From IMG/VR virus record IMGVR_UViG_2671180896_000002: 47,890 bases of DNA. One strand, given 5' to 3'. This document shows, piece after piece, positions 24,206-35,995 of this stretch. Every line of letters starts with the position of its first letter. Position 1 is the first letter of the stretch. Source of the DNA: a virus (taxonomy: Duplodnaviria > Heunggongvirae > Uroviricota > Caudoviricetes). The position numbers were made by a program, and so were the translations under genes. The notes under the pieces were generated by a model that saw only the letters and a list, made by a program, of their open reading frames with translations, made no database searches and was not told where the DNA came from.

Positions 24206-25663
24206 TTAGGAGCGCCAAAAAAAACCTGAAAACAATATAATAACAGGATAAATTTCAAGGCGACCAAGAATCATAGCTATGCACATTAAACATTTTGCAA
24301 TGTCATTAAGCACTCCGAATGACGATGCAGTAGCCCCAAAACCTAATCCCATATTATTAATACATGCAGCCACTGTTGCAAATGATGTAAGAAAATCATA
24401 TCCCATACCATTTAACACCAGTATAAAAAACACCGTGAAGAGAGTATAAAGAAAAAAGAAACTCCATACAGACCTCATTACACGATCTGTAACTATCTTC
24501 CCTCCTACATTTACACTCAACAACGCTCTGGGATGAGAAAGCTGATTTATCTCGTGTTTGCTTTGTTTGAAAAGTATAAGAAATCGAAGTGACTTAATTC
24601 CACCACAAGTTGAACCTATACATCCCCCAAAGAAACTTGACAACAGCAAAAACACTATCGTGTGCGTGGGCCAACTTGCATAATCCTGCGTAGCTAAACC
24701 ATTATCAGTGAGCATGGAGCTGGCAAGAAAAAACGAATGAATAAAACTTCCATGCAAGTCATACATACCTATATGCCAGACCTGGAAAGAGGTAACAATG
24801 ATCACCCCTAAGGCTATTAACAGAAAGAAACGAAGTTCAATATCTCTGATTAAAGGTTTTATCGTTTTCCTGCTAATAACAATATACCAAAGAGTGAAGT
24901 TGAAAGCCGATAGCAGGGAAAAAGAACCAGCCACCAGCTCAACCAAATAGTTATTAAAATATCCGATACTCTCGCTATGAGTTGAGAAACCACCAAGCGA
25001 AACTGTGGAAATCCCGTGACAAATAGCATCAAACAAAGGCATTCCTGCAAGTCTATAACAGACAATACAAGCAATACCTAATAAAGAATAAGTTATCCAC
25101 AGTGTCCGTGACGTATCGGCCAGGCGGGGAGTGAGTTTGTCATCCTTAAATGGCCCCGGCATTTCTGACTGATAAAGCTTTGCACCACCAATACCCAATA
25201 ATGGCAATACAGCAACCGCCAGAACAATAACTCCTAAACCACCTATAAAATTTAACTGTGACCGATAGTACAAATATGCCCGAGGTAATGAACTAACATC
25301 ATCAATTACAGTTGCTCCTGTTGTTGTTATTCCAGAAACCCCTTCAAACAGAGCATCAATGAACGTTAAATTAAGTTCTGAGTCAATCCATAAAGGGAAT
25401 GCACTAATAACAGAAAACAAAATCCAAAACATTACAATTATAATAAACCCATCACGGGTACGTAATTGAATGCCAGATTTCTTAGTTGTATACCACGCTC
25501 CGCCACCAATGCAAAAAAATATAACGAAAGTTATAAAGAAAACGAACAGGCTTTTTTCTTTATAAAACAATGCTACAACCATTGGTGGCAACATTGAAAG
25601 ACTATAGAGCCAAACCAGGAACCCACACATATGAGTAACAACTCTTACATGAGATGTATTCAT
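24206..25663 (-). CDS. trkG: Trk-system potassium uptake protein TrkG (TrkH/KtrB family)
   Basis: 485-aa polytopic membrane protein from MNTSHVRVVTHMCGFLVWLYSL...; recognisable as Rac prophage TrkG; gene is markedly AT-rich. Confidence 0.9.
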   Translation of the reverse strand: MNTSHVRVVTHMCGFLVWLYSLSMLPPMVVALFYKEKSLFVFFITFVIFFCIGGGAWYTTKKSGIQLRTRDGFIIIVMFWILFSVISAFPLWIDSELNLTFIDALFEGVSGITTTGATVIDDVSSLPRAYLYYRSQLNFIGGLGVIVLAVAVLPLLGIGGAKLYQSEMPGPFKDDKLTPRLADTSRTLWITYSLLGIACIVCYRLAGMPLFDAICHGISTVSLGGFSTHSESIGYFNNYLVELVAGSFSLLSAFNFTLWYIVISRKTIKPLIRDIELRFFLLIALGVIIVTSFQVWHIGMYDLHGSFIHSFFLASSMLTDNGLATQDYASWPTHTIVFLLLSSFFGGCIGSTCGGIKSLRFLILFKQSKHEINQLSHPRALLSVNVGGKIVTDRVMRSVWSFFFLYTLFTVFFILVLNGMGYDFLTSFATVAACINNMGLGFGATASSFGVLNDIAKCLMCIAMILGRLEIYPVIILFSGFFWRS

Positions 25664-25800
25664 ATCTAAATATTCTTTCAATTATAACCACCTTGCTGCA
25701 ATATTATGATTATACTGTATAAAATTTAACTCCTCTTAGATCTTACTTCACTGTTCCTTATGAAACAATCATCAAAATGAATCATATTGTAGTTAAGATT

Positions 25801-26265
25801 TTACTTTAAACACTGCTCGGTTATGTATTGCTGAGCACCTTCAAGTTGGGCCTGCATCATTACCAGTCGTTCCCGGAGGGTGAAATAATCCCGTTCAGCG
25901 GTGTCTGCCAGTCGGGGGGAGGCTGCATTATCCACGCCGGAGGCGGTGGTGGCTTCACGCACTGACTGACAGACTGCTTTGATGTGCAACCGACGACGAC
26001 CAGCGGCAACATCATCACGCAGAACATCATTTTCAGCTTTCGCATCAGCTAACTCCTTCGTGTATTTTGCATCGAGCGCAGCAACATCACGCTGACGCAT
26101 CTGCATGTCAGTAATTGCCGCGTTCGCCAGCTTCAGTTCTCTGGCATTTTTGTCGCGCTGTTCTTTGTAGGCGATGGCGTTATCACGGTAATGATTAACA
26201 CCCCATGACAGGCAGACGACGATGCAGATAACCAGAGCGGAGATAATCGCGGTTACTCTGTTCAT
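25801..26265 (-). CDS. Spanin, inner-membrane subunit (Rz)
   Basis: Start [21 protein letters not shown] (N-terminal TM) overlapping the endolysin stop (ATGA); coiled-coil periplasmic domain; last gene of the lysis cassette. Confidence 0.8.
25860..26045 (-). CDS. Spanin, outer-membrane lipoprotein subunit (Rz1), embedded in Rz in another frame
   Basis: 61-aa [27 protein letters not shown]... with lipobox (VVGC) and proline-rich mature part ([15 protein letters not shown]), fully inside Rz. Confidence 0.75.
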
Positions 26266-26759
26266 TGCTGACCCCACAAACAGATTTCACGCTCAATCTC
26301 ACGACGAGTCATGAGACCTTTCCATTGCTTACCGCCAGCATATGTCCAGCGACGTAGCTGATCACATGCGCCTTTGATATCGCCCTGGTTTATTTTGCGA
26401 AGAAGCGTCGATGTTCTGAAATTGCCAGCACCCACGTTGTAAACGAATGAGTAAAGAGCGCCGCGCGTTGTTTCCGGTATATCGACTTTGATGTACGGGT
26501 TAATTTGTCTGGCGACCGTGGCAAGGTCTTTATTCAAGAGTGTTTTGCATTCTGCTTTGGTATACGTTTTACCGAGCATGATGTCTTTTCCTGTATGCCC
26601 GTGACATACAGTCCATACACCAACAATATCTTTGTATGGTATGTAGCTGACACCTTCCAGACCATCGTTACCACTTGGGCCAGTGATTAACACTGATGCT
26701 ATAGCAATTGCTCCGCCACCAATAGCAGCAGCAACGACTTTTCGTAATGATGGAGGCAT
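26262..26759 (-). CDS. SAR endolysin (lysozyme family, N-terminal signal-anchor-release domain)
   Basis: 165-aa ORF with Gly/Ala-rich weakly hydrophobic N-terminus ([20 protein letters not shown]); start overlaps holin stop (TAATG). Confidence 0.8.
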
Positions 26760-26974
26760 TATTCACCTCTCGCAGCCTTGCGCTTATCTTCTTTAATCTT
26801 GAAATAAAGGTTTGTCAGGTACGTCAGCAGGCCAAATACCAGACTACCCAGCACACCGATTGCAGCCCACTGTGACGGAGTTACTCTATCGAGCAACTGT
26901 AAAAACCAGTAGCCAGCACTGCCTGCGGAGGTGCCGTAGGCAATGCCTGTTGAAATTTTGTCCATGGATTTCAT
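26759..26974 (-). CDS. Pinholin (phage 21 S-like) with dual-start motif
   Basis: [71 protein letters not shown]: two TM segments, dual starts MKSM.../MDK... as in S21 antiholin/holin; GGAGGTGAGG SD upstream. Confidence 0.85.
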
Positions 26975-27075
26975 AGCCTCACCTCCGCACGGAACGGATG
27001 GCATAGTTATTATGTGTAGGCTTTCAGACACATCAATCAGAGCCTTAATTGATATATATGCTGGAGACGATGCAA

Positions 27076-27100
27076 TATAAAAAGCTCGCCGTAGCGAGCT
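27076..27100 (-). terminator. Rho-independent terminator between moron lipoprotein genes and the lysis cassette
   Basis: Minus strand: AGCTCGC-TACG-GCGAGCT followed by TTTTTATATT. Confidence 0.55.
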
Positions 27101-27225
27101 AATATAATGTATTTCTCTGATATTATGTTTATTTGTATTAGCTCAGACTTGACATCACAGGTTTCGTATATAGAACATCATCAAATCTGTCAGTTTGCTA
27201 TGAATGAGATATAGTAATTGAAGAG

Positions 27226-27621
27226 CTAACCTCGCATGTCAAAGCCAGATTTCTGAAAATCTCTGTAGACTTCCGGATTGTTGAAGGCCGGAAATTTGGC
27301 TTTATGAGCTGCGGACTTTATCGCTTCGCAATAGGCTTTATCACCGTTACTGGTAGATATTTTTAACGCCGTGCCATCCTGAGAGAATTCCATATGCAAC
27401 CTGCATTTTTTCCCTTTCCAGTTATGCGGCTCATCAAGTTTGGCATTAATTGCAGCTCTGATTCCCCGCGCTTGCGCCCCCCATTCATCCTGATCATCCC
27501 AGCGTCCTGAACTGCAACTACCTGTAGCAGTAGTTTTGTGGCAATCTGAAGGGTGTAAAGGTGTGCATCCCGCAACAAAACCGACCCAAAAAGTCAACAT
27601 AACGATTTTCTTTAATCCCAC
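27226..27621 (-). CDS. Lipoprotein with TolA C-terminal (domain III)-like region, paralog 1
   Basis: 131-aa ORF; signal peptide plus lipobox (FVAGC); C-terminal KGKKCRLHMEFSQDGTALKISTSNGDKAYCEAIKSAAHKAKFPAFNNPEVYRDFQ follows the same pattern as paralog 2 and TolA domain III. Confidence 0.6.
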   Translation of the reverse strand: MGLKKIVMLTFWVGFVAGCTPLHPSDCHKTTATGSCSSGRWDDQDEWGAQARGIRAAINAKLDEPHNWKGKKCRLHMEFSQDGTALKISTSNGDKAYCEAIKSAAHKAKFPAFNNPEVYRDFQKSGFDMRG

Positions 27622-27771
27622 TTCTTGCTCCTCAATCCATTAAAATCTCAGCAATAGTAGTTGTTACGTCCGCCACTGGCTCAGAGCTGACTATCCGCTA
27701 AATTTAGCTCAGTGCCGTAGCTGTGTCAGAACAAACCTAAGCCGAAACCGTTTATTACAAAACAATAAATA

Positions 27772-28200
27772 TCAGGGTTTAAAATCCAGCACCCCATTTT
27801 GAAATACTTTATATACTTCCGGCGAAGGGGGGGCAGGTATATCAGCATTCTTTATCGCATTCATCGCTTCACGACATAAATCGAGGTCTCCACTTTCTCT
27901 TTTAACCTCCAGTAGAAGGCCATTCGGGGCCATATGCATTCTCAGTGTACACTCTTTTCCTGAATACTTACTCGCATCCCCGAACTGTTTTTCGATGGCG
28001 CTCTTGATTTGATGGGCATACAGACGGATATCCTCACTAACATCAGAAGTACGTTCAGATGAACTCACATACTGTGTCTCTATTGCTTTATCGGAGTAAT
28101 ATGATGTACGGTCATGATAATTTGTCGATACAGCATCAGTGCACCCGATAATAATCCCACTAATAATCAACGTAAGAATTGATGCGCTACGAAAACCCAT
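27772..28200 (-). CDS. Lipoprotein with TolA C-terminal (domain III)-like region, paralog 2
   Basis: 142-aa ORF; lipobox (IIGC); C-terminal YAHQIKSAIEKQFGDASKYSGKECTLRMHMAPNGLLLEVKRESGDLDLCREAMNAIKNADIPAPPSPEVYKVFQNGVLDFKP closely resembles the C-terminus of E. coli TolA as I recall it (...YAGQIKSAIESKFYDASSYAGKTCTLRIKLAPDGMLLDIKPEGGDPALCQAALAAAKLAKIPKPPSQAVYEVFKNAPLDFKP). Confidence 0.7.
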   Translation of the reverse strand: MGFRSASILTLIISGIIIGCTDAVSTNYHDRTSYYSDKAIETQYVSSSERTSDVSEDIRLYAHQIKSAIEKQFGDASKYSGKECTLRMHMAPNGLLLEVKRESGDLDLCREAMNAIKNADIPAPPSPEVYKVFQNGVLDFKP

Positions 28201-29138
28201 TTTTCCTCACATATGTCATATAGTAAAGGATTATATATACCGTTGTTTTGGACGCTCAAACAGCGAATCAGATCAAATAAAACGCACATTTGTTAACATT
28301 TACACAAAGTCTGCGTGGGATATTCTGAAAGAATATCCATAATGTGGAGAGAATCTATTGAAGTGCATGGTGCCGGGTGCCTCCCGGTGAACAAAATGTT
28401 CGTGATACCTGTCGGCGACAGAAAAGGTTAATGGTATCACCCCACCGCACAGGGGGATTCACCATGCAGGAGTTTTCTTAGCAAACTCACTGCGCGCCCG
28501 GCAACTCCCAACCACATAAAATGCGGAGTTTGTGGTATTTATGCATATAACTCGCAGGAATTATCTTAAAAAACTGATGTCGATCCGGATTAAAAAGAAG
28601 CAGGTCATCATCAGATGACTGGAAAAAAGGAAAACAAAAAATACTCATCATACAGTTTTGATTGCAGGGATGAGCCTGCTATGCACAATATGCAGAATAT
28701 AAGCAAGATAAAAATATGCAGGCATATTATTTCGGGTTTTGTTATTAACACAACCTTTTTAATAATCATTTGGCATACAATAAACCAGCCCAAAAAGAAC
28801 CGCCTAAACAGGCGGTTGGTCAATACAAAGGATGCTTCGTCTTTATTATAGTAATCTGAGGCGTCGGGTGTCTTGTATCAGACAACATATTGTCCCGCTA
28901 AACAGCGAATTACAAACCACCCTGCAATGATCTCTCATCTCATTTTATATGAGTTGACGACATCAGGATAACGCATCATCAGCCCCTGCCAAGAAATATC
29001 AAAACTCCCGCCAGCAATGTGTTATCACAATATTGTAAAAAAAACACAGCACCGAAACTATAACTGGTCTCTGTTATAATTTGGAGCAGAAAGACCAGTT
29101 GCCCAACTAGCAGCATTCTCCCCTGCTTTCCTGACGTA

Positions 29139-29166
29139 AAAAAACCGCATTAAGCGGTTTTTTTAC
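29139..29166 (-). terminator. Strong hairpin with flanking A and T runs, candidate late terminator (tR'-like) downstream of the Q-like gene
   Basis: AAAAAAACCGC-ATTAA-GCGGTTTTTTTA; on the minus strand the stem is followed by a 7-T run; about 80 nt downstream of the 180-aa gene stop. Confidence 0.55.
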
Positions 29167-29244
29167 GATGTCCATGTCTGCAATCCGCCTCGCGATACAG
29201 CTTTGCGAAGCATAGCAAAATTGAAGCAGTTTATACGTAAGAAA

Positions 29245-29787
29245 TCAAGCCATTTTCTCAGCAAATGATTCACGCATGGGAATATATAGGGCATACTCAG
29301 CAACAGCTAACCAATTAGCAATCCGTTTTTCGCATGTGCTAAAACACCACTCTGGGTGTGCATCATTTAGCAATTCAGCCATTTTGCGCTTAGTCATCCC
29401 CCGCCCTTCATAGCGTTGCCGGAGAATGCAAATCAATCCTGGATGCTCTGCCAGCACCTCACTTATGACTCGATCAATACATAACGCCTCTGCATCAGTA
29501 CAATGCGCCAGCCAGCTCTTTTGCTTGCCGTTGATCATCTCTCGCAAAAACGCTTCCAGCTCAGCTTTCTCTATTCCCGCTTTTTTCATTCTGCGCAGGG
29601 CTTCATTAATGGCTGTTTTCGTCAGTTTTTTGGATGCCAACAACTGATTGAACATATTCCCTGACCTGCCACCGCCAATATACGACCAGCGCCCCCACAT
29701 ACGTAGTTTTCCCTGAATCCAGACACTTTCCAGCGTGGTGAGGCGAAGGTGTTCTCCGCTTTTTCCTGTATTCGTTGGGTAAATCAT
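29245..29787 (-). CDS. Putative late-gene antiterminator (Q-like) by position; family not identified
   Basis: 180-aa ORF with Cys pairs (HCTDAEALC, EWCFSTCEK); last gene of the nin-like block, followed by terminator hairpin, morons and the lysis cassette, the position lambda Q occupies. Not lambda-Q-like in sequence. Confidence 0.4.
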   Translation of the reverse strand: MIYPTNTGKSGEHLRLTTLESVWIQGKLRMWGRWSYIGGGRSGNMFNQLLASKKLTKTAINEALRRMKKAGIEKAELEAFLREMINGKQKSWLAHCTDAEALCIDRVISEVLAEHPGLICILRQRYEGRGMTKRKMAELLNDAHPEWCFSTCEKRIANWLAVAEYALYIPMRESFAEKMA

Positions 29788-31173: not shown

Positions 31174-32292
31174 GTGCCGATGAATTACTCTCACGATAAC
31201 TGGTCAGCAATTCTGGCCCATATTGGTAAGCCCGAAGAACTGGATACTTCGGCACGTAATGCCGGGGCTCTAACCCGCCGCCGCGAAATTCGTGATGCTG
31301 CAACTCTGCTACGTCTGGGGCTGGCTTACGGCCCCGGGGGGATGTCATTACGTGAAGTCACTGCATGGGCTCAGCTCCATGACGTTGCAACATTATCTGA
31401 CGTGGCTCTCCTGAAGCGGCTGCGGAATGCCGCCGACTGGTTTGGCATACTTGCCGCACAAACACTTGCTGTACGCGCCGCAGTTACGGGTTGTACAAGC
31501 GGAAAGAGATTGCGTCTTGTCGATGGAACAGCAATCAGTGCGCCCGGGGGCGGCAGCGCTGAATGGCGACTACATATGGGATATGATCCTCATACCTGTC
31601 AGTTCACTGATTTTGAGCTAACCGACAGCAGAGACGCTGAACGGCTGGACCGATTTGCGCAAACGGCAGACGAGATACGCATTGCTGACCGGGGATTCGG
31701 TTCGCGTCCCGAATGTATCCGCTCACTTGCTTTTGGAGAAGCTGATTATATCGTCCGGGTTCACTGGCGAGGATTGCGCTGGTTAACTGTAGAAGGAATG
31801 CGCTTTGACATGATGGGTTTTCTGCGCGGGCTGGATTGCGGTAAGAACGGTGAAACCACTGTAATGATAGGCAATTCAGGTAATAAAAAAGCCGGAGCGC
31901 CCTTTCCGGCACGTCTCATTGCCGTATCACTTCCTCCCGAAAAAGCATTAATCAGTAAAACCCGACTGCTCAGCGAGAATCGTCGAAAAGGACGAGTAGT
32001 TCAGGCGGAAACGCTGGAAGCAGCGGGCCATGTGCTATTGCTAACATCATTACCGGAAGATGAATATTCAGCAGAGCAAGTGGCTGATTGTTACCGTCTG
32101 CGATGGCAAATTGAACTGGCTTTTAAGCGGCTCAAAAGTTTGCTGCACCTGGATGCTTTGCGTGCAAAGGAACCTGAACTCGCGAAAGCGTGGATATTTG
32201 CTAATCTACTCGCCGCATTTTTAATTGACGACATAATCCAGCCATCGCTGGATTTCCCCCCCAGAAGTGCCGGATCCGAAAAGAAGAACTAA
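31174..32292 (+). CDS. insL: IS186 transposase (IS4 family, DDE)
   Basis: 372-aa ORF (M)PMNYSHDNWSAILAHIGKPEELDTSARNAGALTRRREIRDAATLLRLGLAYGPGG..., recognisable as IS186/IS421 transposase; sits inside the inverted repeats. Confidence 0.9.
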   Translation: MPMNYSHDNWSAILAHIGKPEELDTSARNAGALTRRREIRDAATLLRLGLAYGPGGMSLREVTAWAQLHDVATLSDVALLKRLRNAADWFGILAAQTLAVRAAVTGCTSGKRLRLVDGTAISAPGGGSAEWRLHMGYDPHTCQFTDFELTDSRDAERLDRFAQTADEIRIADRGFGSRPECIRSLAFGEADYIVRVHWRGLRWLTVEGMRFDMMGFLRGLDCGKNGETTVMIGNSGNKKAGAPFPARLIAVSLPPEKALISKTRLLSENRRKGRVVQAETLEAAGHVLLLTSLPEDEYSAEQVADCYRLRWQIELAFKRLKSLLHLDALRAKEPELAKAWIFANLLAAFLIDDIIQPSLDFPPRSAGSEKKN

Positions 32293-32970: not shown

Positions 32971-34029
32971 ATGAGTTTCCTTTCTGAACAAGACGTACAA
33001 AATTTAGTCATTAATAAAATGATCTTTCACGTTGTAGGTAAGAATCTTGAAGCACCGACACTTCTCAAAGAAATAAAACCAGTTCAGCATGTGGATTTTT
33101 TTCTTGAACGTATCAAATCTTCACTGAAAGGAAATCTTTTCACTTTTCTGGAGAATTCAAATACCGAAAGAATCCTGCGTATCATTAGAGATAAAGCAGA
33201 TGCTGAAGCTAATTGTTTTACAGAACAATCGAAGCTACTGGCCAGTGATTTTCAGTCACACCATTCTAGCGGTAACACGAGTATGGGATGCTTTTTCTTA
33301 TTTGAATTGGTTTCAGATAAGGAAAAATTATATGCAATTATAAAATACGATAATGAAGATGTGGTTCGTTATGTTCTTGACGAAAAGTTATCTGAAGAAC
33401 AAATGCCTACTTTAGAAAGATTTCATGAAACTTTCGTAAAAAAAGCTGAGGCAATGCAAAAAATAGCGTTAATTCAACTTGATCCAAGTGGGAAAGGCGG
33501 GAAAGTTATTGTAAAAGACAGGAGTAAAAGAACCAATATTTCAGGATATTTTAAAGGCTTCTTAAATGTTAAAAGAGTCAACTCTGAAATTGAACTTTGC
33601 AATAAGCTTATTGATGCGCTGAAAATAACCTTCAAAAGGCATAAAGAATTATTACCAGAGTCAATTCAAAAAAGCGGCGTAAATAAAATATATGAAGTTT
33701 TAAGCAGAGCTGATTTCGAATATAATCCTGAAGATGCTTCTCCGTTATTGACCAGCATTTTTGGGCCGTTAGATGAAAAATCACCAATTCTCAACACATT
33801 CAAAACTCAAACAAAAAATGCTGGTATTGAAGGCGAATCCTTTACTGTAAAAGCAGATGGCATTCATAAACCACCAAGACGAAAAATTGAAACTGCAGAA
33901 AGTGTAGTAATTAGTTATAATGAAGATGACCGTCCAGAAATAAGAAACTTAGATGATGGGCGAAAACAAATTATTGTTACTACTGCGAGGATTATTACTG
34001 ATGACATCGATACTTCAAAAAATCGATGA
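32971..34029 (+). CDS. NdpA/YejK (NA37)-like nucleoid-associated-protein-family protein, 352 aa
   Basis: ATG with GGAG SD; motifs NKMIFHVVGKN, MGCFFLFELVSDKEKLYAIIKYD and ISGYFKGFLNVKRV parallel YejK motifs (ALHQLIK, GGFVLFCHYRYLAVEYLL, YLTFLKGRVGRKV) as recalled; AT-rich gene on the strand opposite to flanking phage genes. Confidence 0.55.
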   Translation: MSFLSEQDVQNLVINKMIFHVVGKNLEAPTLLKEIKPVQHVDFFLERIKSSLKGNLFTFLENSNTERILRIIRDKADAEANCFTEQSKLLASDFQSHHSSGNTSMGCFFLFELVSDKEKLYAIIKYDNEDVVRYVLDEKLSEEQMPTLERFHETFVKKAEAMQKIALIQLDPSGKGGKVIVKDRSKRTNISGYFKGFLNVKRVNSEIELCNKLIDALKITFKRHKELLPESIQKSGVNKIYEVLSRADFEYNPEDASPLLTSIFGPLDEKSPILNTFKTQTKNAGIEGESFTVKADGIHKPPRRKIETAESVVISYNEDDRPEIRNLDDGRKQIIVTTARIITDDIDTSKNR

Positions 34030-35434
34030 GTCTATACAGGCGTCAAGGAAAGACCCTGAATTTTTGGCATCAGAATCAATAAAAAATGATTCTGCGCGCG
34101 TTCTAATTTCTGCCAAAATGGACAAAGATGCACTCATTCTTTGGCAGTACGTTTACGAAAACGTACCAAATTGGATTGAAATTACTGTTAAAGATGACTG
34201 TAATGACGAAGTAAAACCATCGTCATGCAGTGAAGGTGATAAACTTAACATTACGCTAAAATGCATTGCATTCGAAAATAACAGGTATATTTTTACGCTC
34301 GAAGGGTGGAATGTTTTTCTACACAATGATGATTTAGTATCAATAACCAATAAAGTGAATATTCTCGGTTTGAAACATGGATTTGAAACTTTAGGATATT
34401 CTGTTGAGCCATGGAACCATGCTCCAGAAAAAATTGAACCTAATGAAACCGTACGAACTTCAATCAATTTACAGAGCTACGTTAAATTCTATTCTAGTGA
34501 GTTCATGCCTGCATCTGATATAGCTCCTTGGGTACTTTATAAAATGCCTGAGGCAGAGGACAACTTTTTCAAAAAATGGTTACAAGTTTCCTGCAATATG
34601 CTTTGTCGCACTCTCGTTAATGAATTATTAGCAGATGAAAAGAAATCAATTTGTTTAACTGGAAAGCCACCAAAAAAATTAATTTATGGAGATCCAGACA
34701 TTCTGCTTTCCGACTATTCAGTTTTACAAACTGTAATAAACTGGATCTTTATTGAGGGCAATGAGATTGAACTCAAACATACTTTCTTCACAAGTGAGTT
34801 AGCACGAGAATGGCCAGAGTATGTATCCTTCTGTGAGGGTTTACCAAAAAAACTCCCTATGGCCTTTGAGTCAGCAAAATTACTATATAAGGCCCACATT
34901 CGCGCTAGCAGCAGAGAGACTATTAAATCTCTGTCCGATCTAAGGAAAACCTTAGCTGAAGACACGCAAAAAATAATAAGTCAGTCTAAAGACATCACAT
35001 CCGCTCTTTGGAAAGATCTGGCTCTGGTTATAAGTCTATTTGCAATAAAATATGCGCTAGACGCATCAAAGATTAATATAACCAATAACATATTCCCATA
35101 TATGTTCTTCGCGTTATCTATATATATTTTTATATCTCAGGTTACAACTCTCTTCATAAATAAAAATTACTTTAAGATACTTGATAATACTAGGCTAGTC
35201 TGGAGAGATAAACTATATGGTTTTCTTGATGATACTGACTATGAGAATCTTGCAGTCACACCATTAAGAGAGGCATACAAAGCTTATCAGATTATAGCCA
35301 CATTCGTTGTGATTCTGACTTTGCTGATTTCATTTATAATGATCATATTAGGATTCTCAATGCTTGATGAACATGCTACGAATGCAATTACCTCTTGGCT
35401 CAGTTCTCACTTAATCAATAGTTACTGTAGTTAA
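34001..35434 (+). CDS. Membrane protein, ~477 aa: N-terminal soluble domain plus three or more C-terminal transmembrane helices
   Basis: Start ATG 34001 (MTSILQKIDESIQ...) overlaps the upstream gene by 29 nt (supplied ORF begins at 33953); C-terminal hydrophobic segments LALVISLFAIKYAL, IFPYMFFALSIYIFISQVTTLFI, IIATFVVILTLLISFIMIILGFSML. Confidence 0.6.
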   Translation: MTSILQKIDESIQASRKDPEFLASESIKNDSARVLISAKMDKDALILWQYVYENVPNWIEITVKDDCNDEVKPSSCSEGDKLNITLKCIAFENNRYIFTLEGWNVFLHNDDLVSITNKVNILGLKHGFETLGYSVEPWNHAPEKIEPNETVRTSINLQSYVKFYSSEFMPASDIAPWVLYKMPEAEDNFFKKWLQVSCNMLCRTLVNELLADEKKSICLTGKPPKKLIYGDPDILLSDYSVLQTVINWIFIEGNEIELKHTFFTSELAREWPEYVSFCEGLPKKLPMAFESAKLLYKAHIRASSRETIKSLSDLRKTLAEDTQKIISQSKDITSALWKDLALVISLFAIKYALDASKINITNNIFPYMFFALSIYIFISQVTTLFINKNYFKILDNTRLVWRDKLYGFLDDTDYENLAVTPLREAYKAYQIIATFVVILTLLISFIMIILGFSMLDEHATNAITSWLSSHLINSYCS

Positions 35435-35464: not shown

Positions 35465-35995
35465 TCAACGGTAATAGATACAACCTGCAATAAATCCCAT
35501 TGCCATTTGCATTTTTTTCCTTATTTTACCATCTGAACATTCGTTTATCTTAGCTAAACAACGCAATGAAACTCTCATAACAAAATGAGCGATAATTAAC
35601 TCATAGTCATCTATCCTATATTGTTTAAGCCTCAACATGCAGGTATCAATTATACCCCCTTCATCATTGCTGCACTGACGACGTGATTTTTTACCATGAG
35701 GAACAACATTTTTATATTTATCAGCTATTTCCTGCCAATCAATAGAACTATTTTCAGCTACAGCCCAGGCTCCCCAACCGTCCAAAATATCATATATATT
35801 AGCATTGCTATCTACCTGTTTTTTATATTCTTTTTTGAAGCGCGCAAGAAGCATCCTAGCCATCGTTATTATTTCTATACTTGTAACTGATTCATAAGCA
35901 TCAGGAGAAATAATTCTCCCATCACTTAATGCCCCATCACTAAGATTTGCTATTTCCAATAATCGTTCTTTAGTTATTTCCATTATTATCTCCAC
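35465..35995 (-). CDS. Q-like antitermination protein (QuuD / Phage_antitermQ-like family)
   Basis: Contains DGWGAWAVAEN...KKSRRQCSNDEGGIIDTCMLRLKQ...CLAKINECSDGKIRKKMQMAMGFIAGC matching the WGAWA and Cys-pair pattern of DLP12 QuuD as recalled; start may be an internal Met (MARML..., 35863); AT-rich. Confidence 0.5.
   Translation of the reverse strand: MEIIMEITKERLLEIANLSDGALSDGRIISPDAYESVTSIEIITMARMLLARFKKEYKKQVDSNANIYDILDGWGAWAVAENSSIDWQEIADKYKNVVPHGKKSRRQCSNDEGGIIDTCMLRLKQYRIDDYELIIAHFVMRVSLRCLAKINECSDGKIRKKMQMAMGFIAGCIYYR

Follow-up and report, generated by a model that had tools for sequence, protein, structure and literature searches.

Several mobile genetic elements encode exclusion lipoproteins that block phage or colicin entry at the cell envelope, including Cor (phages phi80, N15 and HK022), Llp (phage T5) and TraT (F plasmid); Cor and Llp inactivate the outer-membrane receptor FhuA. 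Here, we analysed IMG/VR record IMGVR_UViG_2671180896_000002 (Caudoviricetes), a stretch of 47,890 nucleotides hereafter called the window, focusing on two neighbouring genes, A and B, at positions 27226 to 28200, whose predicted products are lipoproteins ending in the C-terminal domain of the host protein TolA. Of the described systems, Cor, Llp and TraT come closest to A and B in presumed action, and share with them gene size, a lipobox and accessory status, but Pfam, NCBIfam and PHROG scans showed no sequence homology between the two sets. Moreover, Cor and Llp act on a surface receptor whereas A and B would imitate a periplasmic co-receptor, a decoy logic that, to our knowledge, has not been described for systems of the Cor/Llp/TraT type. 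We favour, without calling it probable, the reading that A and B are outer-membrane-tethered decoys for those parts of group A colicins and of the filamentous phage protein g3p that bind TolA.

Among the group A colicins, A, N, K and E1 bind TolA directly, while E2-E9 act via TolB. TolA proper comprises a transmembrane domain I, a helical domain II and a C-terminal domain III (TolA-III; residues ~330-421 in Escherichia coli; PDB entries 1TOL, 2X9A, 3QDP/3QDR and 1S62) and is encoded in the tolQRA operon; A and B share the fold, the disulfide pair and the C-terminal β3 docking strand of domain III, but carry a lipoprotein signal and a short tether in place of the rest. TolA-III is a module that captures β-strands and is promiscuous in its choice of partners. 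Three ligands, namely the N1 domain of g3p (g3p-N1), colicin N and the N-terminus of TolB, dock on the β3 strand of TolA (A415-K420), and either D418P or K420P abolishes all three interactions (PMC4339652). The affinity of TolA is about 1 µM for colicin N and about 40 µM for TolB (PMC4339652). Colicin A docks on the opposite edge of TolA-III, via L375-P380 plus K368, K379 and K396 (PMC3365938).

Engineered periplasmic TolA-III and the g3p-mediated immunity of Ff phages perturb the same TolA-III/ligand interaction, reportedly with colicin tolerance and Ff resistance as outcomes, but they consist of a laboratory construct and of a phage ligand saturating TolA, whereas A and B would be natural, lipid-anchored copies of the receptor domain. 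Levengood-Freyermuth, Click and Webster reportedly observed in 1993 that periplasmic export of TolA-III alone gives E. coli cells that tolerate group A colicins and leak, and Riechmann and Holliger are said to have found in 1997 that soluble TolA-III competes for g3p-N1. Superinfection immunity mediated by g3p was reportedly described for Ff phages by Boeke, Model and Zinder in 1982. In terms of position, A and B occupy the same slot as the lambdoid morons found between Q and S (stx and bor/lom-type genes), 3' of Q and of terminators and 5' of the holin gene; the pair is accompanied by a terminator and by promoter-like consensus matches, and its proteins and presumed benefit are unlike those of stx and of bor/lom-type genes.

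Similarity to TolA domain III

The two genes and their C-terminal domains are located as follows.

27772..28200 (-): gene A, open reading frame (ORF) with ATG start, 142 amino acids; predicted lipoprotein in which a variable linker joins the signal peptide to a TolA-III domain
27775..28041 (-): TolA-III domain of A, residues 54-142, with Cys84/Cys109 and C-terminal β3 VLDFKP (AlphaFold2 and Foldseek)
27226..27621 (-): gene B, ORF with GTG start, 131 amino acids; predicted lipoprotein in which a conserved linker with a Cys loop joins the signal peptide to a TolA-III domain
27229..27489 (-): TolA-III domain of B, residues 45-131, with Cys73/Cys98 and β3 GFDMRG (AlphaFold2 and Foldseek)

The original prediction, made by reading the sequence, held that the C-terminus of A aligns with TolA-III and that B keeps the same cysteine pair, and it named alignment to TolA and structure prediction as the way to check this. 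Both analyses bear it out, with a similarity far beyond chance and models superposing on TolA-III at 0.6-1.0 Å. Both proteins clear the 25-bit gathering threshold of the Pfam profile PF06519 (TolA C-terminal domain), residues 49-140 of A with 82.6 bits and residues 44-125 of B with 54.6 bits, and phmmer comparison with the TolA-III sequences of the PDB yielded E=5e-28 and E=5e-9, respectively. BLASTP aligned A to K-12 TolA without gaps over TolA residues 336-421, with 52/86 identical positions (60%) and an identical C-terminal LDFKP at the end of the alignment, while B aligned over TolA residues 344-420 with 26/77 identical positions (34%). The cysteine pairs C84/C109 of A and C73/C98 of B align with C363/C388 of TolA and form invariant columns in both families.

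AlphaFold2 models display confident domains preceded by disordered N-terminal tethers, the block-mean predicted local distance difference test (pLDDT) score ranging from 82 to 95 for residues 51-142 of A and from 80 to 97 for residues 41-131 of B. In Foldseek searches, the best match of the A model was 2x9a_B, which is TolA-III from its complex with If1 g3p (root mean square deviation [rmsd] of 0.6 Å, template modelling [TM] score of 0.96), and the B model superposed on 3qdp with an rmsd of 1.0 Å and a TM score of 0.93; the top matches of both were all TolA-III, an α/β fold with a three-stranded sheet. Pfam, NCBIfam and PHROG scans of the two proteins returned only families of the TolA/TonB type or of unknown function: A additionally matches Pfam TonB_2, and phrog_5772, which PHROG labels 'unknown function', includes both proteins over their full length (E about 1e-62 for A and 1e-65 for B). 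By sequence, fold and disulfide pair, the C-terminal 85-90 residues of A and B are a genuine TolA domain III.

Lipoprotein signals, tethers and translation starts

The N-terminal parts and the ribosome-binding sites are the following.

28204..28208 (-): ribosome-binding site GAGGA of A, 3 nt 5' of the ATG (from the sequence)
28141..28200 (-): signal peptide and lipobox of A, residues 1-20, IIGC, with Thr at +2 and Asp at +3 (from the translation)
27628..27633 (-): ribosome-binding site GAGGAG of B, 6 nt 5' of the GTG and kept in homologues
27565..27621 (-): signal peptide and lipobox of B, residues 1-19, VAGC, with Thr at +2 (from the translation)
27490..27564 (-): linker of B, residues 20-44, with Cys27, Cys36 and a near-invariant GRWDDQDEWG (from alignments; low pLDDT in the model)

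Each signal peptide consists of a basic n-region and a hydrophobic core followed by the lipobox, and the two lipoboxes named in the original prediction could both be read in the translations. A starts with MGFRSASILTLIISGIIIGC, which ends on the lipobox Cys20 and is followed by TD; B starts with MGLKKIVMLTFWVGFVAGC, ending on Cys19 and followed by TP. Cys20 is invariant across the A-family alignment, as is Cys19 across that of the B family. Under the +2 rule of the E. coli Lol system, Asp at +2 means retention in the inner membrane; A and B have Thr at this position and are thus predicted to be outer-membrane lipoproteins. In homologues, residue +2 is A, S, T or G.

The linkers of A and B evolve differently. 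That of A is variable, whereas that of the B family is nearly invariant between genera, with the pattern C..PLHPS.CHKTTATGSCSSGRWDDQDEWG and two extra cysteines. We considered this segment as a possible TolB box and rejected it, as the consensus DG(S/T)GWSSE is not matched.

The RefSeq annotation of NZ_CP115361.1, produced by the Prokaryotic Genome Annotation Pipeline (PGAP), places the start of B seven codons later, at an internal ATG (124 amino acids), and thereby loses the basic n-region of the signal peptide. The upstream start codon keeps its position in homologues (GTG in Citrobacter, Serratia and Enterobacter, ATG on IncI1 plasmids and in Klebsiella oxytoca), which supports the GTG start; except for this start codon, B is WP_001348108. 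Comparative data support the reading frames of 142 amino acids for A and 131 for B.

Distinction from TolA and from tolA remnants

Neither protein is TolA itself. At 142 and 131 amino acids, against 421 for TolA, A and B have no transmembrane domain I or helical domain II, but a lipoprotein signal and a linker of 25-35 residues modelled at low confidence. Both fail the NCBIfam equivalog model for full-length TolA, NF007065 (107.8 bits for A and 53.7 for B, for a cut-off of 213). On TIGR02794 (cut-off of 59.45), A reaches 75.6 over model positions 265-362 only and B stays under the cut-off with 47.2. The two genes lie in the late region of a prophage, outside the ybgC-tolQRA-tolB-pal-cpoB operon, as seen by comparison with the K-12 tol operon.

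In RefSeq (NZ_CP115361.1), PGAP marks A as a tolA pseudogene, 'incomplete, missing N-terminus', and A is consequently missing from protein sets and protein-based surveys. This label is what would speak for regarding A as a decaying tolA fragment and B as a drifting ORF, both inert remnants, an idea that we find scarcely credible. A begins with an ATG preceded by a ribosome-binding site and encodes a signal peptide with a lipobox, and its variants at 66-91% identity retain the whole 142-amino-acid architecture. The DNA of its domain is only 59% identical to K-12 tolA with saturated synonymous sites (proportion of synonymous differences, pS, of 0.72), indicating that A is no recent copy of the resident tolA; likewise, a sensitive blastn search with A over 5,426 complete E. 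coli genomes never matched the chromosomal tolA. The ratio of nonsynonymous to synonymous substitution rates (dN/dS) between A and its 66% variant is lower in the domain (0.25) than in the linker (0.57), and it amounts to about 0.1 for B between genera (0.08-0.17 against its homologues). A and B are thus under purifying selection, strong in the case of B, and these conservation data effectively refute the remnant interpretation.

Relation of A to B and the wider family

The original prediction described A and B as tandem paralogues. Their shared ancestry stands, with 29% identity at E=2e-18, but a local duplication does not: A is nearer to TolA (60%) than to B (29%) and each type occurs without the other, so that sequence comparison presents A and B as homologues that did not arise by duplication in place.

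An exhaustive phmmer search with B gathered 130 clusters at the 50% identity level, mostly of 120-150 amino acids. A lipobox is found in 49 of the 66 short family representatives, among which the fold-defining residues and the L-D-F of β3 are the majority residues. Named members come from Erwinia, Klebsiella, Enterobacter, Dryocola and Rahnella and all bear generic names, the NCBI family label being 'cell envelope integrity TolA C-terminal domain-containing protein'. Since short, lipobox-bearing TolA-III members recur across genera, the combination of lipoprotein signal, tether and TolA-III is, judging from these sequences, a family spread across the Enterobacterales. A search of the viral structure database BFVD with this fold returned nothing significant. 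In the literature, a genome-comparison table lists 'TolA protein, hypothetical protein' as a phage segment of 1,355 bp. A ciprofloxacin-induced EDL933 gene annotated 'tail fiber', which one paper connects with TolA, was not counted among the homologues of A or B. The sequences of A and B are already in databases under uninformative names.

Distribution on mobile elements

By blastn, A was found in 898 of the 5,426 complete E. coli genomes (16.5%), and the A+B module in 773 complete E. coli genomes. The 66% variant of A occurs alone, without B, between the Q gene and the nanS-p/holin genes in late regions resembling those of Shiga toxin (Stx) phages. A scan of genome contigs for the A domain using strict peptide patterns retrieved Shigella flexneri only. 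In phage mEp460_ev081, the holin gene, B and A plus 190 nt (window 26758-28391) are 99% identical to the window.

B-type genes are distributed differently. On IncI1, IncB/O and IncK2/Z plasmids, B-type proteins of ~88% identity are encoded 67 nt 3' of the relaxase gene nikB, on the same strand, in the gap between nikB and trbC. The IncI-family B-type genes adjoin resistance insertions in this gap. Such a location inside the transfer region would fit an accessory conjugation factor of IncI-type plasmids, the prophage copy being incidental, yet we regard this as very improbable. In ColIb-P9, the reference IncI1 plasmid, nikB directly abuts trbC and the gap is empty, implying that the B-type gene is cargo rather than a core transfer function; on this ground, B was rejected as a core IncI transfer gene. 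What ColIb-P9 points to is a gene that the plasmid can do without, carried at a hot spot that receives resistance genes too, and the B-type gene is also present on chromosomes and on the non-conjugative plasmid pO157. On this virulence plasmid of E. coli O157:H7, it lies between toxB and a hok/psiAB remnant (NZ_CP062743.1; 6003-6434 of the stretch examined).

Solitary chromosomal copies of B, 78-89% identical, were found in Citrobacter amalonaticus, Enterobacter, Serratia marcescens and Klebsiella oxytoca. Each of these four has different, non-phage neighbours, the Serratia marcescens copy adjoining GmrSD/HEPN genes, and about 190 nt of upstream sequence are common to three of them (Citrobacter, Serratia and K. 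oxytoca, not Enterobacter).

Position in the prophage

The window follows the gene order of an intact E. coli prophage of the Rac family that is integrated beside ttcA: intR, recET, sieB, the genes for replication, the nin region, Q, A and B, followed by the lysis genes, trkG, and the genes for terminase, head and tail. The elements that frame A and B are listed below.

29245..29787 (-): Q-like antiterminator gene (DUF1133), PF06576 at 356 bits and PF06530 at 26.1 bits (reaching the Phage_antitermQ cut-off); marks the late-operon position
29140-29168 (-): hairpin terminator 3' of the Q-like gene, strong and bidirectional-looking (-19.7 kcal/mol)
28311..28497 (-): STnc100-family RNA element 5' of A (Rfam RF02076, 86.6 bits, E=4.6e-18)
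28230..28259 (-): sigma-70 promoter-like site TTGAGC-18-TATAAT immediately 5' of A (consensus scan, 10/12 matches)
27701..27729 (-): weaker promoter-like site CTGACA-17-TAAATT in the A-B spacer (consensus scan, 9/12 matches)
27075..27100 (-): intrinsic terminator between B and the holin gene, hairpin 27100-27083 plus U-tract (-15.3 kcal/mol, z -4.3)
25801..26974 (-): lysis cassette with a P21-type holin, a lysozyme with a hydrophobic N-terminus (signal-anchor-release [SAR] endolysin) and Rz with embedded Rz1 (PF04971, PF00959, PF03245 and PF06085)

A and B sit between the Q-like gene and the holin/lysozyme/Rz-Rz1 genes, in agreement with the moron position upstream of the lysis cassette assigned to them originally, and we consider them accessory (moron or cargo) genes of the Q-to-lysis slot. 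About 0.9 kb of non-coding DNA separates the hairpin terminator of the Q-like gene from A, whose promoter-like site (28259-28230) is identical in mEp460. The terminator between B and the holin gene is what transcription of A and B in a lysogen, without triggering lysis, would require.

An STnc100 match likewise precedes A in phage mEp460, and the mosaic joint of the two phages (window 28391) falls inside the element, which may be a late-leader or regulatory RNA of the A/B module. Some 270 nt past the Q hairpin, at 28798-28874 (-), a promoter-like AAGACA-18-TATAAT is followed ~25 nt later by a hairpin and U-tract; this Q-proximal site and the hairpins are candidates for the late promoter and an early terminator.

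Functional interpretation

The original prediction put forward a decoy or a modulator of Tol-Pal, and either would agree with all that was observed. The docking surfaces of TolA-III are unequally kept. On β3, A has LDFKP exactly and B has F-D-M-R; on the colicin A face, A has LLEVKR, retaining K379 and K396 with His in place of K368. The decoy function that we tentatively propose would work as follows. A and B would be lipoproteins of the inner leaflet of the outer membrane, each holding a free-standing TolA-III on a tether of 25-35 residues. Group A colicins and the g3p of Ff, If1 and IKe would need the domain III tip of the inner-membrane TolA, since binding to it would couple them to the TolQR motor driven by the proton-motive force. 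As A and B lack TolA domains I and II and are anchored as lipoproteins, TolQR cannot energise them. A TolA-III parked at the outer membrane and uncoupled from TolQR could capture the emerging TolA-binding segments before the real TolA does; the captured colicin T-domains or g3p would receive no force and their import would stall, and the cell carrying the prophage or plasmid would thereby tolerate group A colicins and resist filamentous phages. We favour this reading because the docking strand is kept, an outer-membrane tether is predicted, the genes are mobile cargo under selection, a terminator insulates them from the holin gene and periplasmic TolA-III reportedly confers colicin tolerance.

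Several observations weigh against it. The colicin A face of B has lost all three lysines (K368E, K379S and K396H), a loss that, together with the invariant Cys-loop motif, suggests that B has a partner outside the classic set of TolA ligands. The location of A and B in a Q-dependent late operon means that their expression could be mainly lytic; the promoter-like site of A is not kept 5' of its 66% variant, and both promoter calls are consensus matches only. By also binding the N-terminus of TolB, a TolA-III at the outer membrane could impair Tol-Pal, which would be costly for constitutive chromosomal copies unless the affinity is low. Among 50,697 phage records, a single one, mEp460_ev081, has the A/B genes. 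PADLOC-DB 2.0 contains no family matching A or B at E up to 1, and full-text literature searches on TolA-like prophage or plasmid lipoproteins gave no experiment on or study of either protein.

The interference with TolB leads to the chief rival, with which the decoy reading is not mutually exclusive, namely that A and B are Tol-Pal modulators whose tethered TolA-III binds the N-terminus of host TolB (or Pal), competes with TolA and partly uncouples Tol-Pal. The result could be a looser outer membrane, more vesicles, easier release of phages or toxins at lysis, or an indirect block of TolB-dependent colicins. The β3 strand that is kept is the very one that docks TolB, although the TolA-TolB affinity is weak compared with that for colicin N. 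A role at lysis would suit genes placed in the late operon directly 5' of the holin gene and travelling with it, as in mEp460, and A variants fill the stx position of Stx-phage-like late regions; nevertheless, a terminator divides A and B from the lysis genes, and the known pinholin/SAR-endolysin/spanin pathway works without such a factor. Periplasmic TolA-III is said to cause leakiness, but a chronic envelope defect should be selected against, and the solitary, phage-free copies of B are under strong purifying selection. On balance, we consider modulation of Tol-Pal unlikely to be what A and B are for.

The divergence of B raises another possibility, that the TolA/TonB-type fold serves, especially in B, as a generic β-strand-capture module for some other partner (an envelope protein, another toxin or a host factor). 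B is only 34% identical to TolA and devoid of the colicin A lysines, its Cys27-Cys36 loop and GRWDDQDEWG are near-invariant across genera, implying a second conserved interaction surface, and A has its score on TonB_2. However, A is 60% identical to TolA-III down to the exact LDFKP end, the best structural matches of B are all TolA-III and none TonB, the linker of B does not conform to the TolB-box consensus, and no candidate partner gene adjoins the solitary B copies. A different partner therefore strikes us as quite improbable. Under the decoy reading, the ligand sets of the two proteins may differ, A keeping the colicin A face and B having lost it while gaining a conserved Cys-loop motif.

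Other features of the prophage

The window contains two Q-like antiterminator genes: the DUF1133 type at 29245-29787 (-) next to A, and a PF06530 type 6 kb upstream, at 35465-35995 (-). Between them lie an IS421 transposase gene and a hok/sok-type locus (31174-32292 (+)); the separation of the two Q-like genes suggests a mosaic or disrupted nin-Q region. The same interval holds a pair of opposite-strand genes (32971-35434 (+)) coding for a 352-amino-acid NA37-like nucleoid-associated protein and an overlapping 493-amino-acid protein, the latter having no Pfam or PADLOC match; the pair is possibly further accessory or defence cargo. Directly 3' of Rz/Rz1, at 24206-25681 (-), lies trkG, encoding a TrkH-family potassium transporter and known as a Rac cargo gene, here within a complete prophage that has terminase and structural genes.

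Significance

It is plausible, though we would extend the argument this far only with reserve, that free-standing TolA-III tethered to the outer membrane constitutes a widespread and unrecognised class of receptor-mimic exclusion factors in the Enterobacterales, A and B possibly having different ligand sets. If A and B are decoys, co-receptor mimicry would allow one small gene to provide broad tolerance to Tol-dependent bacteriocins together with resistance to pilus-specific filamentous phages, which would account for the spread of such a gene over prophages, IncI/K/Z plasmids and pO157 as well as chromosomal islets. Nature would thereby offer a clean case in which a mobile element borrows a receptor domain of its host to neutralise other invaders, and Tol-Pal research would gain a natural tool in which the binding of ligands is separated from the transmission of force. 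Roughly one sixth of complete E. coli genomes would then possess a filter of their own that keeps out group A colicins and phages of the Ff/If1 type. As pO157 and many IncI-family resistance plasmids carry a B-type gene, a decoy function would also bear on colicin- or phage-based antimicrobials, on the use of plasmid-dependent phages against resistance plasmids and on competition among gut E. coli.

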